18,953 bases of DNA from a virus, in UHGV virus genome UHGV-1695118; one strand, 5' to 3'. Within the stretch, counting starts at the first letter, position 1; each line of letters starts with the position of its first letter. Shown one piece after another: positions 1-11,959 of this stretch. Position numbers and translations under genes: made by a program. Below the pieces are notes generated by a model that was not told the DNA's origin, did not search any database, and saw only the letters and a program-made list of their open reading frames with translations.

Positions 1-713
1 CCACCACGGCTACGCCATTGGGTTAACGCCCACTCAAATACTAAAGTGATCTCATTCTCCGTATACGCTTTACGTGTTTTTGTTTCTGTCAGTAGTTCTA
101 CGAATGGCTTAGCATCACGACATTTGCATCCTGCCTTGTCGTTGTAGAAGGCAAGGCAACGCAATGCCGCTTCGTTTACGCCATCCTGATTGACCATTTT
201 TTGTTCATTTTCGACAATACACGAAGTGTATATATCTTTTTCTCTTTCTTTTTCTACTTCTAATTCTAATTCTAATTCTAATTCATGACCCTTTCCTGAC
301 CCGGTCATGACCCTATCATGACCTTTTTGTGTTGGATTGATTAACTTTTCTAATTTTAATTGCTCCTTCGCTGTGTTTATGGCGGCCCTGTAAGCGCTTT
401 TAGAAGTCATTGATTGGTCCAGCCTTTTCAATAACTTTAAACAAGTTATGTGGCCTTGAGAACATTCAAACAAACCAATTTCGATGAAGTATTTCATCAT
501 TTCTTCTATACGTTTTTCAGTAGATCCGACGTTTCGCGCAATTATTCTTGCGTCATGTCGTAGGTCAAAAGTTAGATTGTGCTGATCTACGTCATAAGTT
601 ATTAGTTCTAGGCAATACCAATAAAGCCCGTACCCTTCCAGGCCATAATCTAACAAAACGTTTTGAAGTTTTTCATCGCGGTTCGCATCGCTGTCATGCT
701 TAAACCACTTCAT
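1..713 (-). CDS. Replication initiator / replisome-organizer-like protein, N-terminal 237 codons (ORF continues beyond window position 1)
   Basis: Hand translation of the minus strand gives an uninterrupted frame from ATG (713-711) to the window edge. GGAGG lies 9 nt upstream. The N-terminus MKWFKHDSDANRDEKL resembles the conserved start of phage replisome-organizer proteins. Absent from the ORF track because there is no in-window stop. Confidence 0.6.
   Translation of the reverse strand, partial: MKWFKHDSDANRDEKLQNVLLDYGLEGYGLYWYCLELITYDVDQHNLTFDLRHDARIIARNVGSTEKRIEEMMKYFIEIGLFECSQGHITCLKLLKRLDQSMTSKSAYRAAINTAKEQLKLEKLINPTQKGHDRVMTGSGKGHELELELELEVEKEREKDIYTSCIVENEQKMVNQDGVNEAALRCLAFYNDKAGCKCRDAKPFVELLTETKTRKAYTENEITLVFEWALTQWRSRG
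252..324. repeat. Hexamer tract (TTCTAC/TTCTAA)x5 (252-281) followed by three direct copies of TCATGACC(C)T (283-292, 305-314, 316-324), inside the replication gene
   Basis: Read directly. The TCATGACC copies are spaced 22 and 11 bp apart. On the coding (minus) strand the tract encodes KGHELELELELEVEKEREKD. Confidence 0.8.
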
Positions 714-716
714 AGA

Positions 717-974
717 TCATCCCTCCGGCAACATCACTACATAGACATCACTGAATGCATCAAGACGACAAACAAATCCTTTATCCATTAACGCGGCGAA
801 GGCATCATGTACCGTATGAACAGGAAGTTCACACATTGCGGCTACTTCTTTGCGTGATGCATCATGTACCCGTCCTTTGTTATCTGCCTTTTCAGCCAGA
901 GCCATTAAGACAAGTTTTTGAATCGGGCTGTTAAGTTTTACGTTCCATACTTCATTCATCATGTGCATACTCAT
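717..974 (-). CDS. Small winged-helix HTH DNA-binding protein (HTH_36-like), first gene of the operon divergent from the repressor
   Basis: ORF-track frame 717..1052. ATG at 974 is preferred because AGGAG sits 7 nt upstream; the TTG start at 1052 is not excluded. The segment LNSPIQKLVLMALAEKADNKGRV...EVAAMCELPVHTVHDAFAALMDKGFV fits the winged-helix pattern of replication-initiator DNA-binding domains. The stop is 3 nt before the ATG of the downstream replication gene. Confidence 0.6.
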   Translation of the reverse strand: MSMHMMNEVWNVKLNSPIQKLVLMALAEKADNKGRVHDASRKEVAAMCELPVHTVHDAFAALMDKGFVCRLDAFSDVYVVMLPEG

Positions 975-1279
975 CGTGTTTTCTCCTATGGTTAGAGTGA
1001 ACGCGCGGGCGGGCATCCCATTAGCATTAGATAGCAGTGACTGACCGCTCAACAGATCCCGCCGTTGCGTGATATTTGTTTTTCGCTTCGCAGCGACACC
1101 GGATTTTTAAAGAGCTTAAGGTAAGTGCCTTTTTGTGCCTTCCGTTATCTTTTTCCTTGCGTCTTTGCAAGTATGGCCTTACCTTGTCTGCAAGTTTACA
1201 AAATGGAATTTTAAGATCAAGGCTTAAAATACACGTTTTGTGACTTGCATCAAACTTTTTGAGGTTATAGGGTAGCGAC
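975..1279. promoter_or_regulatory. Divergent promoter/operator region between the repressor gene and the leftward operon
   Basis: About 300 bp non-coding between divergent genes. Contains palindromes CTTGC-N6-GCAAG (1156-1171) and CTTG-N4-CAAG (1183-1194), a TGTGA-N6-TCAAA element (1239-1254), and possible back-to-back promoters (minus strand -35 TTGATG 1253-1248 and -10 TATTTT 1231-1226; plus strand -35 GTGACT 1240-1245). Promoter assignments are weak. Confidence 0.55.
1083..1117 (-). promoter_or_regulatory. Candidate nutR-like site (boxA GCTCTTTAAAAA plus boxB hairpin UCGCU-GCGA-AGCGA) on the leftward transcript
   Basis: The minus strand reads AAGCTCTTTAAAAATCCGGTGTCGCTGCGAAGCGAAAAAC. The boxA matches the rrn/lambda boxA consensus (GCTCTTTAA), followed 8 nt later by a 5-bp stem with a GNRA-type loop. 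Confidence 0.4.
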
Positions 1280-1927
1280 ATGAAAACAAAATGGTATGAC
1301 TTAGCAAAGCAGCTCATGCGGGCGCAGGGCATGAGCCAGGATTCACTAGCGGATCGCATGGGGATAACTAAAGGCGGCCTGTCACACTGGCTGAACGGTC
1401 GCCGCGAGCCAAATCTTGAAGATATTGCGCGGATTATGCGAGAGCTTGGTCGTCGGCAGTTCACTGTTACACATGATGGTATGGTCATTGATGATTCTGT
1501 TTCTAATACACTTCAGGCCGTGCCGCCGCGTGATTTAGGTAGTTACCCGGTTATTGACTGGAAGGACACAGTAAACAATATGGATGACGCAAGGCGTTCA
1601 GCATTACGACACGTTACGACTAGCGTTATTTGTTCAGATGACAGTTACTGGCTGGTTGCCAAAGGTGAATCAATGAACGCGCCGCAGGGGTTGAGCATCC
1701 CGGCGGGGACGATGATACTTGTTGACCCGCACGCGCCAGCTATTGACGGCAAACTGGTTATAGCCCAGCTTGAGGAAGGGCAGATACCGACGTTTAAACA
1801 GTTGATTATTGATGGAGGTCAAAGGCTTTTACGTTCGCTCAATCCGCTGTATCCGCCAATCCCTATGAATCCAGAATCAAAAATTATAGGCGTGGTGGTT
1901 GATGCGAAGATCGTAAACCTGCCATAA
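1280..1927 (+). CDS. cI: CI/c2-type phage repressor (N-terminal HTH, C-terminal S24 LexA-like autopeptidase domain)
   Basis: 215 aa. C-terminal half (SYPVIDW...GESMNAPQGLSIPAGTMILVDP...GKLVIAQLEE...KIIGVVVDAKIVNLP) is close to the remembered P22 c2 C-terminal domain, with Ser (GESM) and Lys (GKLV) catalytic residues. N-terminal HTH (SQDSLADRMGITKGGLSHWLNGRREP). Confidence 0.93.
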   Translation: MKTKWYDLAKQLMRAQGMSQDSLADRMGITKGGLSHWLNGRREPNLEDIARIMRELGRRQFTVTHDGMVIDDSVSNTLQAVPPRDLGSYPVIDWKDTVNNMDDARRSALRHVTTSVICSDDSYWLVAKGESMNAPQGLSIPAGTMILVDPHAPAIDGKLVIAQLEEGQIPTFKQLIIDGGQRLLRSLNPLYPPIPMNPESKIIGVVVDAKIVNLP

Positions 1928-1932
1928 ACATT

Positions 1933-1957
1933 AGCCGCCGGATGGCGGCTTTTCTTT
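1933..1957 (+). terminator. Rho-independent terminator after the repressor gene
   Basis: AGCCGCC-GGAT-GGCGGCT perfect 7-bp stem, 4-nt loop, then TTTCTTT, 6 nt after the repressor stop codon. Confidence 0.7.
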
Positions 1958-2050
1958 GCCTGGAAAACGCCAAAACGTAAACAGAAAACGTTATTTATTG
2001 TTTAAATATCAATAGCATATAAAATATTTTAAAAAAGTATACAAAATGGA

Positions 2051-2079
2051 TTGACTTGATGTTTTACGGGGCGTATATT
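2051..2079 (+). promoter_or_regulatory. PL-like sigma70 promoter (-35 TTGACT, 17-bp spacer, -10 TATATT)
   Basis: TTGACT at 2051-2056 and TATATT at 2074-2079 with an A/T-rich upstream tract. Located between the repressor terminator and the N-like gene. Confidence 0.6.
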
Positions 2080-2334
2080 GCGAGTCAAAGGAAGGTCGCA
2101 GGTAACAAAAGCAACTTCCTGGCACTTTAAAAATCAGGCTTAACACCTTGTCAACCGTGGAGTAACTCCCCGATGGGGGACCGAAAGCGGCACTGATAAC
2201 AAGGCGCATGGGGTGTTTAAAGCGTTACATCCCCCACGAAACCGCACGCAAGGCGACGAGTCAGCTTGCTTGGAGTGAGCAAGGTCACGCCGGGAACGGC
2301 GATGATTGCGGGATTAGTTGAAAGATGTTAAGCC

Positions 2335-2371
2335 GCTCATTAACAATCTGGTCAGCCGCTGGAAGTGCGGC
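2335..2371 (+). promoter_or_regulatory. Candidate nutL-like site (boxA GCTCATTAACAA plus boxB-like hairpin GCCGC-UGGAAGU-GCGGC)
   Basis: boxA matches rrn boxA GCTCTTTAACAA at 11 of 12 positions. A hairpin follows 8 nt downstream, about 55 nt upstream of the N-like start. Confidence 0.45.
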
Positions 2372-2426
2372 AATTAACGAAGATGATTTTTATTAATTTT
2401 CATCAAGGATATACGGAGATCAGATT

Positions 2427-2717
2427 ATGAGCGTTACAATTATATATGGCAAATGTGATAGCAAAATGAATGCCAGGGAACGCAGAAGGATAAAAAGAGA
2501 AAACGAAAGAAAATCATCACCTGCAATCAATAAAACAGACAATGTGGATAAAGCTATTCGATTTGCAAACGAGGAAAGATGCAAACCAAATAGCATTAAA
2601 GAACGTCGCAAAGGATCAGTAAAATGGTATACGGAAAATGAAAGCGGCAGCTACTACCACGCAACGCAACCACGCCATTTAGGGGAAAAACCCCTGGATA
2701 AAGTCCGCTACCATTAA
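2427..2717 (+). CDS. N: N-like transcription antitermination protein (P22 gene 24 type)
   Basis: 96 aa. N-terminus MSVTIIYGKCDSKMNARERRRIKRENERK carries an arginine-rich motif and resembles the remembered P22 gp24 start. GGAG lies 8 nt upstream of the ATG. Sits downstream of the repressor, PL-like promoter and nut-like site. Confidence 0.8.
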   Translation: MSVTIIYGKCDSKMNARERRRIKRENERKSSPAINKTDNVDKAIRFANEERCKPNSIKERRKGSVKWYTENESGSYYHATQPRHLGEKPLDKVRYH

Positions 2718-2747
2718 TACAAAATGTAAACATTCGGAGGTGACATT

Positions 2748-2870
2748 ATGGTTATTCTGGCGCTTCAATTCAAACTGGCGGTAGCGGAAATGCTTCATGA
2801 TGCCGAAATGTGGAGCGCCGCGAATAAAGCCTTATACATAGTGTTAACAGCGAAGGAGATTAAAGGGTGA
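2748..2870 (+). CDS. Hypothetical small protein (40 aa), translationally coupled to erf
   Basis: ATG at 2748 with GGAGG 7 nt upstream. Its stop TGA overlaps the GTG start of erf (GTGA). Below the ORF-track size cutoff. Confidence 0.4.
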   Translation: MVILALQFKLAVAEMLHDAEMWSAANKALYIVLTAKEIKG

Positions 2871-3508
2871 AAACAGAGTTACATAAAAAACTATGGACGA
2901 TTCAGCAAACGCTGAATGCGCCGAAAAATCAGCGTAATAACTTCGGTGGCTATAATTACAGGTCTGCGGAGGATATTTTAGAGGCGGTTAAACCACTGCT
3001 TCAAAATATCACACTGACTGTTAGTGATGAAATTGTCCTGATCGGCAATCGCTATTATGTGAAAGCAACGGCGACGCTAAGCGACGGTGAAGATGTAATA
3101 GCGGTAACTGCTTATGCCAGGGAGGAAGAAAGCAAGAAGGGTATGGACGCCAGCCAGCTAACAGGAGCAACATCAAGTTACGCGCGTAAATATGCTTTGA
3201 ACGGTTTATTCTGCATAGATGATGCTCGCGATCCTGATACTGATGCTTACGCGAAGCAGACAGGCCTGCAGCAGCGACAACAGAAAAACCCACCAAAACA
3301 ACAACCGCAGCAGAAGAAAGCGCCGCCAAATCCTGATGAAGTATTAGCACGTTTCTGTGATGCAGCAGCGAAAGCGCAGGACGCTAACAAGCTGCGTGAA
3401 ATATTTGGCAAATGCTGGAAATTACTACCGGAAGGATCGGAACATCGAATCAAGGCAAAAGATGTTTATGACATCCGGGTAGCAGAGCTTAACGGGGAGA
3501 TGTGTTAA
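2867..3508 (+). CDS. erf: Erf-family single-strand annealing recombinase
   Basis: 213 aa with GTG start and AAGGAG 8 nt upstream. Segments LNAPKNQ, YRSAEDILEAVKPLL, SDEIVLIGNRYYVKATAT and GATSSYARKY match remembered P22 Erf. Gln/Pro-rich C-terminal linker. Confidence 0.9.
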   Translation: MKTELHKKLWTIQQTLNAPKNQRNNFGGYNYRSAEDILEAVKPLLQNITLTVSDEIVLIGNRYYVKATATLSDGEDVIAVTAYAREEESKKGMDASQLTGATSSYARKYALNGLFCIDDARDPDTDAYAKQTGLQQRQQKNPPKQQPQQKKAPPNPDEVLARFCDAAAKAQDANKLREIFGKCWKLLPEGSEHRIKAKDVYDIRVAELNGEMC

Positions 3509-3927
3509 TGAGTTTAAATTCAATCACGCTGGGCGGGAATATCGGTAATGATATGGAGGTTCGCTACACACAAAACGGGAAAGCGATTGGTAGTTTTCCG
3601 TTAGCTGTAACGAATGGCTACGGCGATAATAAGCGGGTAATGTGGATCACTTGCCTGGTATTTGGCGAGCGTGCGGAAAAATTGGCGCCACATATCCGTA
3701 AGGGTGGAAAAATAGTGGTAAGCGGTCGCCTGGATGTTCGGCAATATGACCGGAACGACGGCACGAAGGGGACTGCGGTAGAAGTGGCGGTTAATGAATT
3801 TGAATTCATGAATGTTAACCAACAAGGCCAGCAGCAAGGACAGCAGCAGAAAGCGCCGCCGCAGCAGCAGAATAATAACGGGAATAATCCGCCTCAGATG
3901 GACTTCGACGACGATATTCCTTTTTAG
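3508..3927 (+). CDS. ssb: Single-stranded DNA-binding protein
   Basis: 139 aa from ATG 3508, which overlaps the erf stop (TAATG), with GGGGAGA upstream. OB-fold-like core, Gln-rich linker and the acidic C-terminal tip DFDDDIPF typical of bacterial and phage SSB. Confidence 0.93.
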   Translation: MSLNSITLGGNIGNDMEVRYTQNGKAIGSFPLAVTNGYGDNKRVMWITCLVFGERAEKLAPHIRKGGKIVVSGRLDVRQYDRNDGTKGTAVEVAVNEFEFMNVNQQGQQQGQQQKAPPQQQNNNGNNPPQMDFDDDIPF

Positions 3928-3943
3928 AATCAATGTGTTAGCT

Positions 3944-4222
3944 ATGAGTGATTATCTAAAACCGCCACCGCAACCACGAACAAAAGAGCAAGTATTAAAA
4001 GAAGCCCGCGATCGATTTGATCGCGGGCTTTTTTTATGCGGCACGGCAGCGGATCGAATGGCGAAAAGATTTAGTGACCTGTACGCGAAGCAAATCTGGT
4101 TTGACAACTGGCGAGCGAGTTCTTACCCGCTACAGAAAACTGATGATATGCAGTGGCCTGAATATGTTGATCCACGAATGCGCAAATATCGCGGGCGTAT
4201 GGGCAAGGTTATTAACGATTAA
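3944..4222 (+). CDS. Hypothetical protein (92 aa)
   Basis: In-frame ATG downstream of ssb within ORF-track frame 3812..4222; the upstream part of that frame overlaps ssb. No clear SD. Confidence 0.5.
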   Translation: MSDYLKPPPQPRTKEQVLKEARDRFDRGLFLCGTAADRMAKRFSDLYAKQIWFDNWRASSYPLQKTDDMQWPEYVDPRMRKYRGRMGKVIND

Positions 4223-6742: not shown

Positions 6743-6935
6743 ACATTACATGGAATGGAAAATTCCAGAAGCAGCAACAAAGGCAGCGCCAGGAAATGTT
6801 TCTGGCGTTTATTTTTATATGGATGGCAAATGGTATTTCGGCAGCAGGCCGGATCGCTACTATCAAGAAATATGCAAGCCTCACGTATGGGATATTAAAG
6901 AGCGCGTGAAAGGCGGGGTAATTGAGGACGTTTAA
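6732..6935 (+). CDS. Hypothetical protein (67 aa)
   Basis: ORF-track ORF overlapping the upstream gene end; SD distant. Confidence 0.45.
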   Translation: MKFKHYMEWKIPEAATKAAPGNVSGVYFYMDGKWYFGSRPDRYYQEICKPHVWDIKERVKGGVIEDV

Positions 6936-8453: not shown

Positions 8454-8937
8454 CAGGTTATTAGCCTGCGTTTATGTCGCCGTTTTTGTGATCATCAATC
8501 TTATTGTTAATCATTGCGGCCCGTGGGTAATTCCGATCACCACGGTAGCCGCCGTGTGTGTCAATATGATGATCCGTGACCTCCTGTTATATGACGGCGG
8601 CCTGAAATGGTCGGCTACAACATGCGCCGCCGCTGGCGCAATCACGGTGCTGATAAATTACGACGCCGGAATGGTGGCGATCGCGTCATTCGTTGCGGTT
8701 GTTTCCGGTGCACTTATTTCTGGCGGCGTTTACCGGGTTTTGCCTGGTGGCTTTGATTCTAAACGTTGGCCTGCAAATATAGCGTCCGCCATTGGTGATG
8801 CGTTAATTTTTCCTACGCTATCGTTTATGGCGTTTATGCCGGAAATATCAGCTATGCAATTCATCTCAAAAATGGCAGCGGTAACGGTGATCACCATCAT
8901 TATGCGCCGCTATTTCACGTTTGAGGGTAGAAAATGA
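8434..8937 (+). CDS. Multi-pass membrane protein, possibly VUT/YhhQ-family (queuosine-precursor transporter-like)
   Basis: 167 aa from ATG 8434 within ORF-track frame 8392..8937. About 4-5 hydrophobic helices. Segment KRWPANIASAIGDALIFPTLSF resembles the remembered YhhQ segment RRWWLAPTASTLFGNVSDTLAFF. The family call is tentative. Confidence 0.35.
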   Translation: MERVTIDRLLACVYVAVFVIINLIVNHCGPWVIPITTVAAVCVNMMIRDLLLYDGGLKWSATTCAAAGAITVLINYDAGMVAIASFVAVVSGALISGGVYRVLPGGFDSKRWPANIASAIGDALIFPTLSFMAFMPEISAMQFISKMAAVTVITIIMRRYFTFEGRK

Positions 8938-9692
8938 GCAGGGCTAAACATTGGTTAAATAATTGGCTTAGAAGTTGGGTGGTGTGGTCGCTGTACGACG
9001 GCAGCGGGTACGCCGTTAAAGATTGGGCGGAAGCTGGATATAAGTGCTATTGCTTCAACTATGACGGCGCAAATCACGGAGATTATGAAGGCGTTAAAAT
9101 CATTCATCCAAATATTGAATACGTTAACGTCTGGATTGATAGCCATTTCCTGGTAATGTTCTCCCCTGAATTGTCTGTTTATCCAGAGCCTGACATTATC
9201 CTGGGCTTTCCTCCATGCGACGATCTCGCTGTGTCAGGCGCTCGCTGGTTCGTTGATAAATACAGGAAAGATCCTTGTTTTCAGAATAGGGCGGCAAGAA
9301 ACGCAATGTTGGTTGAATCTCTGGCTAACATGTATAACGTGCCGTGGATGGTGGAGAATCCTGTTGGTGTGCTGTCAACGCTATGGCGTAAACCGGATTT
9401 TATCTTCAATCCTTGCGCTTACGGTGGCTACCTGCCGGAAGATGACAAGCATCCTGCTTTCCCTGATGTTTACCCACCGCGCGACGCGTACACGAAGAAA
9501 ACTTGCATATGGTGCGGCAACGGATTCAGGCAGCCGCTTTTTAGACCTGTAGATCTTAACTCTGGTGATAACCCTGGGTGGGCGAAAACCGGAGGCAGGA
9601 CGAAACGAACAAAGATGATCCGCTCACTAACACCGCGTGGCTTTGCCCGTGCTGTATTCCTGGCTAACCATGACCGCGTTTTATCGGACTGA
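8934..9692 (+). CDS. Compact C5-cytosine methyltransferase-like protein
   Basis: 252 aa. ATG overlaps the upstream stop (ATGA). C5-MTase motifs occur in canonical order and spacing: motif I LYDGSG (about aa 20), motif IV GFPPCDDLAVSG with the Pro-Cys catalytic dyad (about aa 92), motif VI MVENPVG (about aa 130). Also carries CIWCGNGF. Short for this family. Confidence 0.5.
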   Translation: MSRAKHWLNNWLRSWVVWSLYDGSGYAVKDWAEAGYKCYCFNYDGANHGDYEGVKIIHPNIEYVNVWIDSHFLVMFSPELSVYPEPDIILGFPPCDDLAVSGARWFVDKYRKDPCFQNRAARNAMLVESLANMYNVPWMVENPVGVLSTLWRKPDFIFNPCAYGGYLPEDDKHPAFPDVYPPRDAYTKKTCIWCGNGFRQPLFRPVDLNSGDNPGWAKTGGRTKRTKMIRSLTPRGFARAVFLANHDRVLSD

Positions 9693-9713
9693 AGTTTACA
9701 AAATGGCGTCATT

Positions 9714-9733: not shown

Positions 9734-9851
9734 TGGCGCTTTTCGCCTTGTTCTGGTGTATCCATTTTGTATACTTCAAGCAAACAAAATGCTCTTTAAA
9801 AATCCGGCAGCGCTGAAATGCGTAGAAATCACCTGAAAAGGAGAGAGCATT

Positions 9852-10042: not shown

Positions 10043-10648
10043 ATGCAAAACCCTAAAAAACCCATAAGACGCCGTTGCAAATGCTGCGGCGTTTTTTTTG
10101 AGCCTAAATATCACAATCAAACGTGGTGCAGCGATGAATGTCTGGAAGAACTGAAGTTTGACCAGCTATGCCGCGACCGTGAGAAGGCTATGAAGGCTAT
10201 GGAGCGGAAGAAACGCCGTGATAGCCAGAGGGAAGAACGCAACCGGAAGCGTAAACAGTTAAATCCGCGTAGTTATTGGATCAAACAAGTTCAAAATGTA
10301 TTTAACGCCTATATTCGCGAACGTGACGCGCGCTTGCCGTGTATATCTTGCGGGACTTACTACGGTGAGCAATGCGGGTGGGATGCAGGTCATTACAGGA
10401 CGGTAGCCGCCGCCGGACACCTTCGCTTCAACGAGGATAATTGCCATAAGCAATGTAGGCACTGCAACCAGACACTAGACGGCAACATCGGAGGGTATCG
10501 CCCGGCGCTGATTCGAAAAATTGGCCTCGCCAGGGTGGTAGCTCTGGAGAACAACAACGATACGCATAAATGGACGATTGCAGAATGTAAGGAGCTAATA
10601 AACATCTATCAGGCGAAATTGGACGCCTTAAGGAGAAAGGCAGCATGA
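10043..10648 (+). CDS. ninG: NinG / Rap-family recombination protein
   Basis: 201 aa from the internal ATG of ORF-track frame 9953..10648. Cys-rich N-terminus (RRCKCCGVFFEP...WCSDEC) and core (PRSYWIKQ...NAYIRERDARLPCISCG...WDAGHYRT...LRFNEDNCHKQC...) match remembered lambda NinG. Confidence 0.85.
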   Translation: MQNPKKPIRRRCKCCGVFFEPKYHNQTWCSDECLEELKFDQLCRDREKAMKAMERKKRRDSQREERNRKRKQLNPRSYWIKQVQNVFNAYIRERDARLPCISCGTYYGEQCGWDAGHYRTVAAAGHLRFNEDNCHKQCRHCNQTLDGNIGGYRPALIRKIGLARVVALENNNDTHKWTIAECKELINIYQAKLDALRRKAA

Positions 10649-11052: not shown

Positions 11053-11231
11053 AAAACGAAGTTAAAGATCTGCAAATAGATATTCAGCGCGACGAGCGTG
11101 ATTTAGAGACGGTCCGACAAATCCAGGCTTTCCACATGCGCGAATTACTTGCGCTGAAAGAGTTCGAAAGAAAGCTGGTGCAATCCATTTCTGATCGTAA
11201 ACGGCTGGCGGCGCGTTATGAGGGCAAATAA
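11049..11231 (+). CDS. Small charged coiled-coil protein (60 aa)
   Basis: ORF-track ORF translationally coupled on both sides (ATGA with rusA, TAATG with Q). Confidence 0.5.
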   Translation: MKNEVKDLQIDIQRDERDLETVRQIQAFHMRELLALKEFERKLVQSISDRKRLAARYEGK

Positions 11232-11959
11232 TGAATTTAGAATCCATTCTAAAATTCCACTTTCCTAAATCACCGCGATTATCTGACGAAAGCCGGGGCA
11301 CGTCCCCGGACGCTCTTAATACGACGGATGCGCTAACCGCTGCGGGTATGGCGCAATCGCGCGTAGAGCTTGGATATAGCGCTTTTTTAGGGAAGATGGA
11401 ACTATCACAAGCCGAAAAACATAGGGCCGTAGTTTTGCTTACAGAGCGTTTAAGGGCTATGGCGAAAGATTACGAATACGTGATGGAGTTAAACGAGGAT
11501 CAGCGCAATGGACTTATTATTCTTGTTGCCGTTTTCGCGTTTCGGGATTATTGCCAGAGTGCGGCGACCGAAAAAGTTTGCCCTAAGTGCGGCGGCCACG
11601 GGCATTTACCAAATCCATATTGCAAATACACATCGACAATTTGTTCGCGGTGCAACGGCAAAGGCTACGTTAAAAACCATTGCCAACGTTGCAAGGGGCG
11701 CGGAGAAGTACCGGATAAAGCAGCCAGTGAAGCGGCGGAAATGCCAGTATTCAAAACGTGCCAGCATTGCGGCGGGCGCGGGTACTCGCGTTTCCCGGTA
11801 GATCTCGTCCGGCAGGCCGTTAACCAGCTTGTTTTCCCGGTAAGCAGATCAACATGGTGGAAGAAATACCGGGTTTTCTATGAAGACGCCATAGCGGAGC
11901 TATTCAAAGAAGAGGCCCGCGCGGAAAGCGAAATTAAACGAGTGACACGGGGTGAATAA
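11231..11959 (+). CDS. Q: Late-gene antitermination protein Q (lambda Q type)
   Basis: 242 aa. N-terminus MNLESILKFHFPKSPRLSDESRGTSPDALNTTDALTAAGMAQSR parallels the remembered lambda Q start. Four CxxCxGxG zinc-finger motifs. Confidence 0.88.
   Translation: MNLESILKFHFPKSPRLSDESRGTSPDALNTTDALTAAGMAQSRVELGYSAFLGKMELSQAEKHRAVVLLTERLRAMAKDYEYVMELNEDQRNGLIILVAVFAFRDYCQSAATEKVCPKCGGHGHLPNPYCKYTSTICSRCNGKGYVKNHCQRCKGRGEVPDKAASEAAEMPVFKTCQHCGGRGYSRFPVDLVRQAVNQLVFPVSRSTWWKKYRVFYEDAIAELFKEEARAESEIKRVTRGE

Follow-up and report, generated by a model that had tools for sequence, protein, structure and literature searches.

Probable nut sites of an mEp021-group coliphage in the virus genome UHGV-1695118

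The closest described system is that of mEp021, a non-lambdoid coliphage. Its antiterminator, the N-like Gp17, needs an arginine-rich motif, has arginines conserved at positions 17, 19, 20, and 24, and acts on three sites: nutL (5′ of the repressor gene), nutR1 (5′ of gp17), and nutR2, which was placed 3′ of a methyltransferase gene (PMC11893012). The same source summarises the experiments of Valencia-Toxqui et al. 2023 (Arch Virol 168:92) on the mEp021 group. From work with GFP reporters, with mutated arginines, and in nus mutant hosts, Gp17 is reported to bind boxB and, with Nus factors, to suppress terminators (PMC11893012).

The window analysed here is the whole stretch of 18,953 nucleotides of the virus genome UHGV-1695118. 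An earlier note, made from the letters alone, had pointed out two nut-like motifs on divergent transcripts. I found that these two motifs and a third site are most probably (about 0.9) the nut sites of a temperate coliphage of the mEp021 (mEpimmI) group, as judged by sequence. The motifs, their conservation and covariation, their place relative to promoter-like elements, and the N-like protein were all observed in the analysis of the window. By analogy, the dependence on Gp17, on its arginine-rich motif, and on Nus factors would carry over from the mEp021 literature.

The window falls in the mEp021/mEpimmI phage group. Its closest relatives are the phage MagusPhagus and several E. coli prophages (98-99% identity), and mEp021, mEp010, and mEp515 share 91-93% DNA identity with it. 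The three-site layout of the mEpimmI system was found at the expected gene positions (1116..1083, 2334-2371, and 9790-9823), the repressor gene lying at 1280-1927 and a 252-aa ORF at 8934-9692 being the counterpart of the mEp021 methyltransferase gene. The 60-nt contexts of nutL, nutR1, and nutR2 are base-for-base the same in the window and in mEp021 (MH706966). The window's sites may be equated with the published nutL and nutR1 on the basis of gene-level positions and of the reported spacing of more than 7.9 kbp between nutR1 and nutR2.

Architecture and conservation of the three sites

Each site has an rrn-type boxA, a spacer of 7-8 nt, and a short hairpin with a loop of the form U-GNRA-A/U, the exception being nutR1 with U-GGAAG-U. 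On the minus strand, nutL (1116..1083) consists of the boxA AGCUCUUUAAAAA (1116..1104), the spacer UCCGGUG (1103..1097), and the boxB UCGC-U-GCGA-A-GCGA (1096..1083), a GNRA tetraloop with a U-A closing pair. On the plus strand, nutR1 (2334-2371) consists of the boxA CGCUCAUUAACAA (2334-2346), the spacer UCUGGUCA (2347-2354), and the boxB GCCGC-U-GGAAG-U-GCGGC (2355-2371). Its loop GGAAG is a 5-nt variant flanked by U.U, while the loops of nutL and nutR2 have 4 nt. Also on the plus strand, nutR2 (about 9790-9823) lies between the 252-aa ORF and the NinG/RusA/Q-like genes, and consists of the boxA UGCUCUUUAAAAA (9790-9802), the spacer UCCGGCA, and the boxB GCGC-U-GAAA-U-GCGU (9810-9823).

The boxA strings GCTCATTAACAA (2335-2346, plus strand) and GCTCTTTAAAAA (1115..1104, minus strand) each have one mismatch in 12 positions to the rrn boxA-spacer string GCUCUUUAACAA, as quoted in PMC2724277. 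The earlier note was right about the plus-strand boxA with 11 of 12 matches followed by a hairpin, and the boxA and GNRA-loop hairpin that it had placed at 1083-1117 on the minus strand is nutL. A boxA matching the NusB/NusE-binding consensus is present at all three sites (AGCUCUUUA at nutL, CGCUCAUUA at nutR1, and UGCUCUUUA at nutR2), the consensus strings being UGCUCUUUA for rrn and CGCUCUUA for lambda (PMC2724277). There are exactly two copies of the 17-mer GCTCTTTAAAAATCCGG in the window, at 1115..1099 (minus strand) and 9791-9807 (plus strand), and 3 nt further on both are followed by CGCTG-NNA-NGCG. It had also been proposed that the boxB candidates of nutL and nutR1 contain a common CGCUG...GAAG core. 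This shared core is partly a coincidence. The CGCUG with a GNRA loop is conserved, but the GAAG half is not; it is absent from nutR2 (CGCUGAAAUGCG) and from variants of nutL including CGCUGCAAUGCG and CGCUGUGAAGCG.

RNA folding, which had been suggested as a check of the two boxB candidates, gave each hairpin as the predicted minimum-energy fold when little flanking sequence was included (-10.1 kcal/mol and z -2.3 for nutR1, -5.9 kcal/mol and z -0.7 for nutL). The z-scores of the nutL and nutR2 hairpins are unremarkable, near zero. Since these hairpins are too short, folding energy alone cannot be significant.

Both nutL and nutR1 are conserved in about 90 related loci. In these loci, a hairpin with a GNRA-like loop (GCGA, GUGA, GCAA, or GAAA) follows the boxA after 7-8 nt; the loop stays GNRA while the stems covary. 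The outer stem pair was found in five forms (UA, GU, AU, CG, and GC), and at another pair GC is replaced by AU. Covariation scored 0.30, compared with 0.07 for shuffled alignments, none of which reached the observed value in 500 trials. nutL was kept in 45 of the 47 sequences examined, with the loop variants GCGA, GUGA, and GCAA, all of them GNRA; in the remaining two loci, the DNA upstream of gp17 is too short to reach nutL. The outermost stem pair of nutR2 is G.U, A-U, or C-G among the relatives. nutR1 was found by similarity search in 46 of the 47 sequences, and the divergent 47th has its own boxA and boxB at the same place. In divergent relatives, nutR1 has kept the boxA together with a U-GAAA-U/A loop, which is carried by different stems (UCGC/GCGA, GCUAC/GUAGC, and GCAC/GUGC). 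Each relative with 65-73% identity in Gp17 has three full sites, neither more nor fewer, in the same places; the nutR1 stems of these relatives differ and the loops are the same.

A covariance model was trained only on sites of the nutL/nutR2 type, with nutR1 left out. In the window, it scored nutL at 64.7 bits, nutR2 at 61.2 bits, and nutR1 at 12.7 bits. nutR1 is the fourth-best match, aligned at full length including the hairpin with a rough E of 0.03; its weak score against this model comes with two spacer insertions and one loop insertion. The next match has 6.8 bits, and only the nut sites and a boxA-only remnant exceed 7 bits. In an Rfam scan of positions 1-4000 with E up to 10, the nut sites and the structured leader described below were unmatched, and there were only sub-threshold chance matches.

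The N-like gene and the putative early transcripts

The plus-strand gene at 2427-2717 encodes a small basic protein of 96 aa, the Gp17 homologue. The earlier note had the plus-strand hairpin 55 nt upstream of this gene, and so it is: nutR1 ends at 2371 and the ATG is at 2427. The protein has a match to PHROG 271, "anti-termination protein N-like", with E 1.3e-13; its identity is 100% to a MagusPhagus protein annotated as N-like and 92.7% to Gp17 of mEp021. At its N-terminus is the arginine-rich motif N15-A-R-E-R-R-R-I-K-R24, in which N15, A16, R17, R20, K23, and R24 stay unchanged even in homologues of only 62% identity (N-A-R-x-x-R-x-x-K-R). The Pfam N_peptide model gives 15.9 bits, under the cut-off of 27.9. 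A PDB sequence search with the protein returned no N peptide among its matches, all of which were noise. A tblastn search against 50,697 phage records gave matches only in the mEp group and MagusPhagus, so there is no plain-BLAST bridge to the N proteins of lambda and P22.

Candidate early promoters were found for both directions. The rightward candidate TTGACT-17-TATATT (2051-2079, plus strand; 10/12 in the scan) has a putative start around 2086 and is kept in all aligned relatives, the most divergent included. The leftward candidate TTGATC-16-TAAACT (1193-1220, minus strand) has a putative start around 1187, from which the nutL boxA is about 70 nt away. It is under the threshold of a simple consensus scan; its hexamers TTGAYC and TAAACT are conserved among 29 distinct sequences and the spacer is variable. 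I infer both transcript start points from these candidates. A terminator scan gave plus-strand terminator-like hairpins at 6785-6809 and at 10073-10091. The latter is followed by eight T's and lies 3′ of nutR2 and 5′ of the Q-like gene (11231-11959; Pfam Antiterm, E 1e-30), and is likely a target of antitermination. The leftward operon, of which the window contains 1 kb, showed no clear intrinsic terminator in that part.

The following sequence of events is proposed. When repression is lifted, RNA polymerase would start at the divergent early promoters and transcribe nutL and nutR1. The rrn-type boxA RNA would recruit NusB/NusE (S10), and the Gp17-like protein would bind the boxB hairpin with its GNRA-type loop through its arginine-rich motif at the N-terminus. 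These contacts, with NusA and NusG, would make the polymerase resistant to termination. The resistant polymerase may then pass terminators leftward into the replication genes and rightward into the recombination, nin, and Q-like genes, and nutR2 may reload or reinforce the complex ahead of the 10073-10091 terminator and the Q-like gene. N-dependent antitermination in both directions, as proposed in the earlier note, is supported by the positions of nutL and nutR1, the identity to mEp021, the PHROG 271 match, and the mEp021 literature.

The upstream boxA, the structured leader, and other readings

May the boxA work alone, as in rRNA operons? In that case, NusB, NusE, and NusA would bring about antitermination without a phage protein, and the hairpins would be incidental. 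The boxA strings are nearer to the rrn than to the lambda consensus, with 9 of 9 positions of UGCUCUUUA at nutR2 and a perfect rrn boxA 13-mer, UGCUCUUUAACAA, at the nutR1 position in ten relatives, and it fits such a reading that the rrn boxA works without N and without boxB (PMC2724277). However, the hairpins are conserved, with covarying stems, a constant GNRA loop, and a fixed spacing of 7-8 nt; a gene for an N-like protein with an invariant arginine-rich motif adjoins nutR1; and readthrough needs Gp17 and its arginines in the mEp021 literature (PMC11893012). Antitermination by the boxA alone is very improbable. A further reading, in which the boxA strings are chance matches in AT-rich leaders and the hairpins serve as a translational operator of gp17, an RNase site, or a pause signal, is very improbable too. 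Hairpins this small are common, with z near zero for nutL and nutR2, and 12-mer matches with at most two mismatches number 8 against 3.5 expected, a modest enrichment. Still, the module of boxA, spacer, and hairpin occurs three times on transcribed strands and is kept at all three places in every relative examined, and two of the three sites are not beside gp17. The N protein of lambda, once bound at nutL, represses its own translation as well; a dual role of the hairpins is therefore possible.

For the rightward transcript, a further boxA has to be weighed. A boxA with a spacer stub, GGCACUUUAAAAAUCAGG, lies at about 2121-2138 on the plus strand without a boxB. Both this remnant and nutR2 had gone unnoticed in the earlier note. 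If its boxA GCACUUUAAAAAUCAGG (2122-2133) were the functional rightward nut site, the 2335 site would be secondary. GCACUUUAAAAAUCAGG is more like the boxA of nutL and nutR2 than is the boxA at 2335-2346, is followed by the AAAAAUC-GG type of spacer common to nutL and nutR2, and scores 15.2 bits with the nut model, slightly over the 2334 site. The covariance model, however, aligned only the boxA and spacer of the 2121-2138 string, with the boxB positions deleted, and the 47 nt starting at 2119 have a poorer fold than shuffled sequences (z +1.3), with no stable hairpin after the orphan boxA. Moreover, this segment is missing from 10 of the 47 sequences, those with a short leader, and the 2335-type site is kept there. 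The distance to nutR2 in mEp021 is 7,947 bp from nutR1 and 8,161 bp from the upstream boxA-only string; Valencia-Toxqui and colleagues reportedly placed nutR2 "more than 7.9 kbp" from nutR1. Because the 2122 boxA is without a boxB and is missing in the short-leader relatives, it was rejected as the real nutR1, a role that it is highly unlikely to have. By this analysis, 2121-2138 is probably not a functional nut site, and 2334-2371 is taken as nutR1.

The orphan boxA was left behind by a structured insertion of about 200 nt that is lacking in about a quarter of the relatives. This domain of the gp17 leader (2137-2334, plus strand), with the closing helix GGCUUAACA/UGUUAAGCC, lies between the orphan boxA and nutR1 and overlaps an annotated 37-aa ORF, "gp16". 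The fold of 2086-2440 has a z of -3.9, and one helix of the domain shows three compensatory pairs in one lineage. Most substitutions in the "gp16" ORF hit the first or second position of a codon, and NCBI PGAP calls no gene at 2137-2334. With this codon-position pattern and with non-conservative changes that preserve RNA pairing, "gp16" is disfavoured as a protein gene. A multi-copy mobile element was also considered for the insert and was rejected, since there is one copy per prophage, always in the context of the gp17 leader. On a possible but rather doubtful reading, 2137-2334 is a discrete functional structured RNA and not gp16. In that case, the segment would have entered the gp17 leader via recombination at boxA, and it could tune the synthesis of Gp17 or the loading of the antitermination complex, for example by RNA processing, by pausing, or by a switch between alternative pairings. 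As a separate part of this reading, the boxB of nutL and nutR2 would have a true GNRA tetraloop flanked by U-A or U.U, without the base that is looped out in the pentaloops of lambda and P22.

Comparison with known antitermination systems

Between the window and the nutL/nutR1/nutR2 and Gp17 system of mEp021 there is no substantive difference: the phage group, the sites, and the gene positions are the same. The present finding is correct and not new; since the three-site Gp17 system of this group has been published with experiments, no new biology is added. It does show that a genuine N/nut antitermination module of a non-lambdoid phage can be recognised from the letters alone. Workers on the system may find use in the stem covariation with strictly GNRA loops in about 90 loci, in the likeness of the nutL and nutR1 sequences to P22 nutL and nutR, and in the structured insertion by which a nut site was split in the majority of the group, though not throughout it.

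P22, with its nutL, nutR, and gp24, shares the order of boxA, spacer, and a boxB stem with CGC.../...GCG arms. Aligned by eye, P22 nutL reads GCGCUGACAAAGCGC-GAACAAAUA and the window's nutL UCGCUGCGAAGCGA-AAAACAAAUA; the boxA-spacer of P22 nutR is CGCUCUUUACCAAUCUGA and that of the window's nutR1 CGCUCAUUAACAAUCUGG, with the boxBs CCGC-C-GACAA-C-GCGG and CCGC-U-GGAAG-U-GCGG, respectively. The P22 nut sites had been named in the earlier note as a comparison, and the arms and flanks are alike by eye, but in the P22 immunity region the nut covariance model ranks nutR and the boxA of nutL second and third with 6.6 and 6.2 bits, which is not significant. The N-termini of the window's Gp17 and P22 gp24 align (MSVTIIYGK..NARERR against MTV-ITYGK..NAKTRR, with a D-x-V-x-KAI motif). 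The similarity between the proteins is weak, with a BLASTP E of 0.017; comparison of the Gp17 family with P22 gp24 by hhalign gave E 0.0034 with a probability of 9.5%, which is only suggestive. P22 boxB has a GACAA pentaloop with a looped-out C (PMC12550061), whereas the loops of the window's nutL and nutR2 are 4-nt GNRA flanked by U-A or U.U. In addition, P22 nutR lies 3′ of cro, while the window's nutL and nutR1 lie in 5′ leaders, and P22 has two sites against three in the window.

Lambda, like the window, has a boxA for NusB/NusE and a boxB whose GNRA-like fold is the binding site of an arginine-rich peptide, and like the mEp system it has a nut site in the N-gene leader and depends on Nus factors (PMC2724277, PMC11893012). 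Apart from the extra U that it has in common with the rrn consensus, the mEp boxA-spacer GCUCUUUAAAAAU is similar to lambda nutL CGCUCUUAAAAAU. Unlike in lambda, the boxA of the window follows the rrn consensus, a loop of 4 nt stands in place of the GAAAA/GAAGA pentaloop, and a third site lies about 7.5 kb further downstream; the phage itself is non-lambdoid (PMC11893012).

The leader of the E. coli rrn operons (boxB-boxA-boxC) has a boxA nearly identical to that of the window, UGCUCUUUA(ACAA) (PMC2724277). In the rrn leader, the hairpin comes before the boxA and can be dispensed with, and antitermination does not need an N-like protein. The hairpin-boxA-boxC order of an N-independent antiterminator working without a phage protein is not the arrangement of the window, where, in contrast, a conserved GNRA hairpin follows the boxA at nut-like spacing and an N-like gene adjoins it.

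Three nut sites and an N-like protein

By megablast, the region 900-2800 is 91-93% identical to that of six E. coli phages from Mexico (mEp021, mEp010, mEp013, mEp044, mEp515 and mEp554) and 98% identical to that of phage MagusPhagus. In addition, 35 complete E. coli genomes have this region as a prophage (88-99% identity). The mEpimmI group, to which the window belongs, is Nus-dependent yet non-lambdoid (PMC11893012). The early antiterminator of the group, Gp17, is N-lambda-like and has an arginine-rich motif (Valencia-Toxqui et al. 2023, summarised in PMC11893012), in which R17, R19, R20, and R24 are conserved. The targets of Gp17 are three nut sites: nutL and nutR1, which lie upstream of the repressor gene and of gp17, respectively, and nutR2, downstream of a methyltransferase gene. 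All three are kept in all 48 genomes studied, nutR1 being the most variable (PMC11893012).

In the window, the boxA strings and hairpins that the earlier note had described lie where it placed them on both strands. The nutL site (1116..1083, minus strand) consists of a boxA AGCUCUUUAAAAA (1116..1104), a spacer UCCGGUG, and a boxB UCGC-U-GCGA-A-GCGA (1096..1083). The nutR1 site (2334-2371, plus strand) has a boxA CGCUCAUUAACAA (2334-2346), a spacer UCUGGUCA, and a boxB GCCGC-U-GGAAG-U-GCGGC (2355-2371), and its 3′ end is 55 nt from the ATG of the N-like gene. The 12-mers of both sites have one mismatch each to the rrn boxA-spacer string GCUCUUUAACAA (PMC2724277). When only short flanks are included in the folding, each hairpin is predicted as the minimum-energy structure; compared with shuffles, only that of nutR1 is conspicuous (z -2.3). 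A small hairpin, AAGG-loop-CCUU (1131..1118, minus strand), directly precedes the nutL boxA; its loop is variable, and its stem is longer in some relatives (e.g., AAGGC-CGAC-GCCUU).

It was found that a third site, nutR2 (9790-9829, plus strand; UGCUCUUUAAAAA-UCCGGCA-GCGC-U-GAAA-U-GCGU), is the same module as nutL, with a nearly identical boxA and spacer and a U-GAAA-U loop. Its position agrees with that of the published nutR2. There are two exact copies of the 12-mer GCTCTTTAAAAA, at 1115..1104 (minus strand) and 9791-9802 (plus strand), and a one-mismatch copy lies at 2122-2133. In mEp021, the counterparts of nutR1 and of the 2122 string both lie upstream of nutR2, at distances of 7,947 bp and 8,161 bp, respectively. 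The abstract of the 2023 mEp021 study reportedly says "more than 7.9 kbp", which the 7,947-bp spacing of the nutR1-type site fits.

Over its entire length, the 96-aa product of the N-like gene (2427-2717, plus strand) matches PHROG 271 'anti-termination protein N-like' (E 1.3e-13). Its identity with the MagusPhagus protein, which is annotated as N-like, is 100%. Sub-threshold matches to Pfam N_peptide were found for seven of nine family members (best E 0.004). Residues N15, A16, R17, R20, K23, and R24 are invariant in homologues down to 62% identity. In summary, this phage group was already known to have this nut system. The observation of the paired sites is confirmed, and N-dependent antitermination in both directions is supported by the site positions, the literature on the group, and the N-like protein.

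Conservation of the sites and the insertion in the gp17 leader

The sites were compared in 43 IMG/VR loci around gp17 homologues, 85 loci found via a degenerate nut pattern, and four loci from relatives with a Gp17 of 65-73% identity. The nutL site is almost invariant; rare loop variants GUGA and GCAA occur beside GCGA, all being GNRA, and the base 3′ of the loop is A or U. The outermost stem pair of nutR2 is G.U, A-U, or C-G. One pattern match outside the mEp group (IMGVR_UViG_3300047178_000019, 11882-11913) has CGCUCUUUAAAAACUUGG followed by a different hairpin, and may represent a nut-like site in some other phage or have arisen by chance.

Eighteen sequences, distinct variants of nutL, nutR2, and divergent nutR1, were aligned. 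In two of the five counted pairs, both sides vary. The covariation score was 0.30 versus 0.07 in shuffles, none of 500 shuffles reached 0.30, and slid registers gave at most 0.12. Only 8 of the 18 sequences have a standard pair at the 'closing' U-A; therefore, the loop is best written as U-GNRA-A/U.

A covariance model of these sequences, with the window's own nutR1 left out, was run over the whole window with filters off. It aligned nutL (64.7 bits) and nutR2 (61.2 bits) at full length, as well as nutR1 (2334-2376; 12.7 bits, rough E 0.03) with the hairpin paired, while the next match was noise (6.8 bits). At 2121-2145 (15.2 bits), the boxA and spacer alone were aligned and the boxB was deleted; the 2122 string was thus rejected as a full nut site. 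In each of the four divergent relatives, the model found exactly three full sites in the same three places. Their nutR1 boxA is GCUCUUUAACAA, and their nutR1 hairpins are UCGC-UGAAAU-GCGA, GCUAC-UGAAAU-GUAGC, and GCAC-UGAAAA-GUGC; a further relative has GCAC-UGAAAU-GUGC. Differing stems with one loop in one place are the pattern expected of a boxB. Compared with these UGAAAU-type loops, that of nutR1 in the window, U-GGAAG-U, has one additional nucleotide.

Ten relatives have a short leader in which, about 45 nt past the promoter, a perfect rrn boxA UGCUCUUUAACAA is directly followed by the nutR1 hairpin. The window and most other relatives have about 213 extra nucleotides, from GCACUUUAAAAAUCAGG to just before GCUCAUUAACAAUCUGG. 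Thus, the nut site was split by an insertion, and an orphan boxA was left upstream. The segment (2121-2334, plus strand), which the ten relatives lack, comprises the orphan boxA (GCACUUUAAAAAUCAGG) and a self-closing structured RNA domain of about 200 nt, whose terminal helix pairs 2137-2145 with 2326-2334 in the predicted fold. The whole leader fold has a z of -3.9, the segment is more conserved than its surroundings, and one inner helix has three compensatory pairs in one lineage. The annotated 37-aa ORF 'gp16' (2207-2320, plus strand) lies within the domain, and its substitution pattern is not like coding constraint. There is one copy of the segment per prophage, always in the same context, and no Rfam match to it was found.

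Transcription units around the sites

The LexA/CI-type repressor gene (1280-1927; HTH_3 and Peptidase_S24) is followed by a terminator (1933-1950), a promoter-like TTGACT-17-TATATT (2051-2079, plus strand), a 340-nt leader, and the N-like gene. This rightward promoter candidate is kept in all relatives. Past the N-like gene lie a Kil-like ORF and the ERF and SSB genes, terminator-like hairpins (6785-6809 and 10073-10091, plus strand), and a Q-like gene (11231-11959, plus strand). Directly 3′ of the N-like gene, the Kil-like 40-aa ORF (2748-2870, plus strand) has a weak match to lambda Kil (Pfam Kil, E 2.4e-4, under the cut-off; phrog_2055, E 0.002), and this arrangement echoes the PL operon order of lambda and P22. 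The nutR2 site lies a short way upstream of the strong terminator-like hairpin at 10073-10091 and of the NinG, RusA, and Q-like genes.

On the minus strand, the conserved hexamers TTGAYC and TAAACT, with a variable 16-nt spacer, lie upstream of nutL in 29 distinct aligned sequences. They predict a leftward start near 1187, which would put nutL at about +72 to +104 and favors its earlier placement in the leader of the leftward operon. The first ORF of this operon (85 aa, 974..717), which precedes a replication gene, is not Cro-like but resembles O-like replication initiators in their N-terminal domain (phrog_4617, E 3e-22); therefore, nutL heads a replication operon. No convincing terminator was found in the 1 kb of this operon within the window.

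Four exact copies of GTWTACAAAATGG were found at 1194-1206, 2037-2049, and 9694-9706 (plus strand) and 9762-9774 (minus strand), and none of 200 shuffles reached the observed number of matches. One copy overlaps the leftward promoter candidate at its -10, and another abuts the -35 of the rightward promoter. Just upstream of nutR2, the two inverted copies are the base of a long hairpin (z -3.5), which lies beside a promoter-like TTGTTC-16-TATACT. The copies may be repressor operators, and a third regulated promoter may feed nutR2.

An iteron-like array of 4.2 copies of TTCATGACCCT with an 11-nt period lies in 235-327, adjoined by the AT-rich hexamer repeats TTCTAA (5.5 copies) and TCTTTT (3.5 copies), all within the minus-strand replication gene. 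The 235-327 repeats are probably the replication origin, by analogy with lambda, whose origin is located within gene O.

Comparison with P22 and known boxB loops

The P22 nut sites were taken from BK000583. The P22 nutL, CGCUCUUUAAC-UUCGAUGAU-GCGCUGACAAAGCGC-GAACAAAUA, and the window's nutL have the CGCUG...AGCG arms and the AACAAAUA tail in common. The P22 nutR, CGCUCUUUACCAAUCUGA-ACCGC-C-GACAA-C-GCGGU, shares the CAAUCUG spacer and the CCGC/GCGG arms with nutR1, and both have a pyrimidine-pyrimidine apposition beside a 5-nt loop. The N-termini of P22 gp24 and Gp17 align with 10 of 20 residues identical (E 0.017), and a D-x-V-x-KAI motif also aligns. In the comparison with P22 to which the earlier note had pointed, the arms, the spacer, and the protein N-terminus are alike, but the formal tests are weak: the nut model gave 6.6 and 6.2 bits on the P22 sites, and the hhalign probability for the two proteins was 9.5%. 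The relation is therefore one of resemblance rather than demonstrated membership, although the shared sequence features suggest common ancestry. The boxB loops known so far have five or six nucleotides and mimic GNRA tetraloops (PMC12550061). Those of nutL and nutR2 in the window seem to be simple GNRA tetraloops, with U-A or U.U as the flanking bases.
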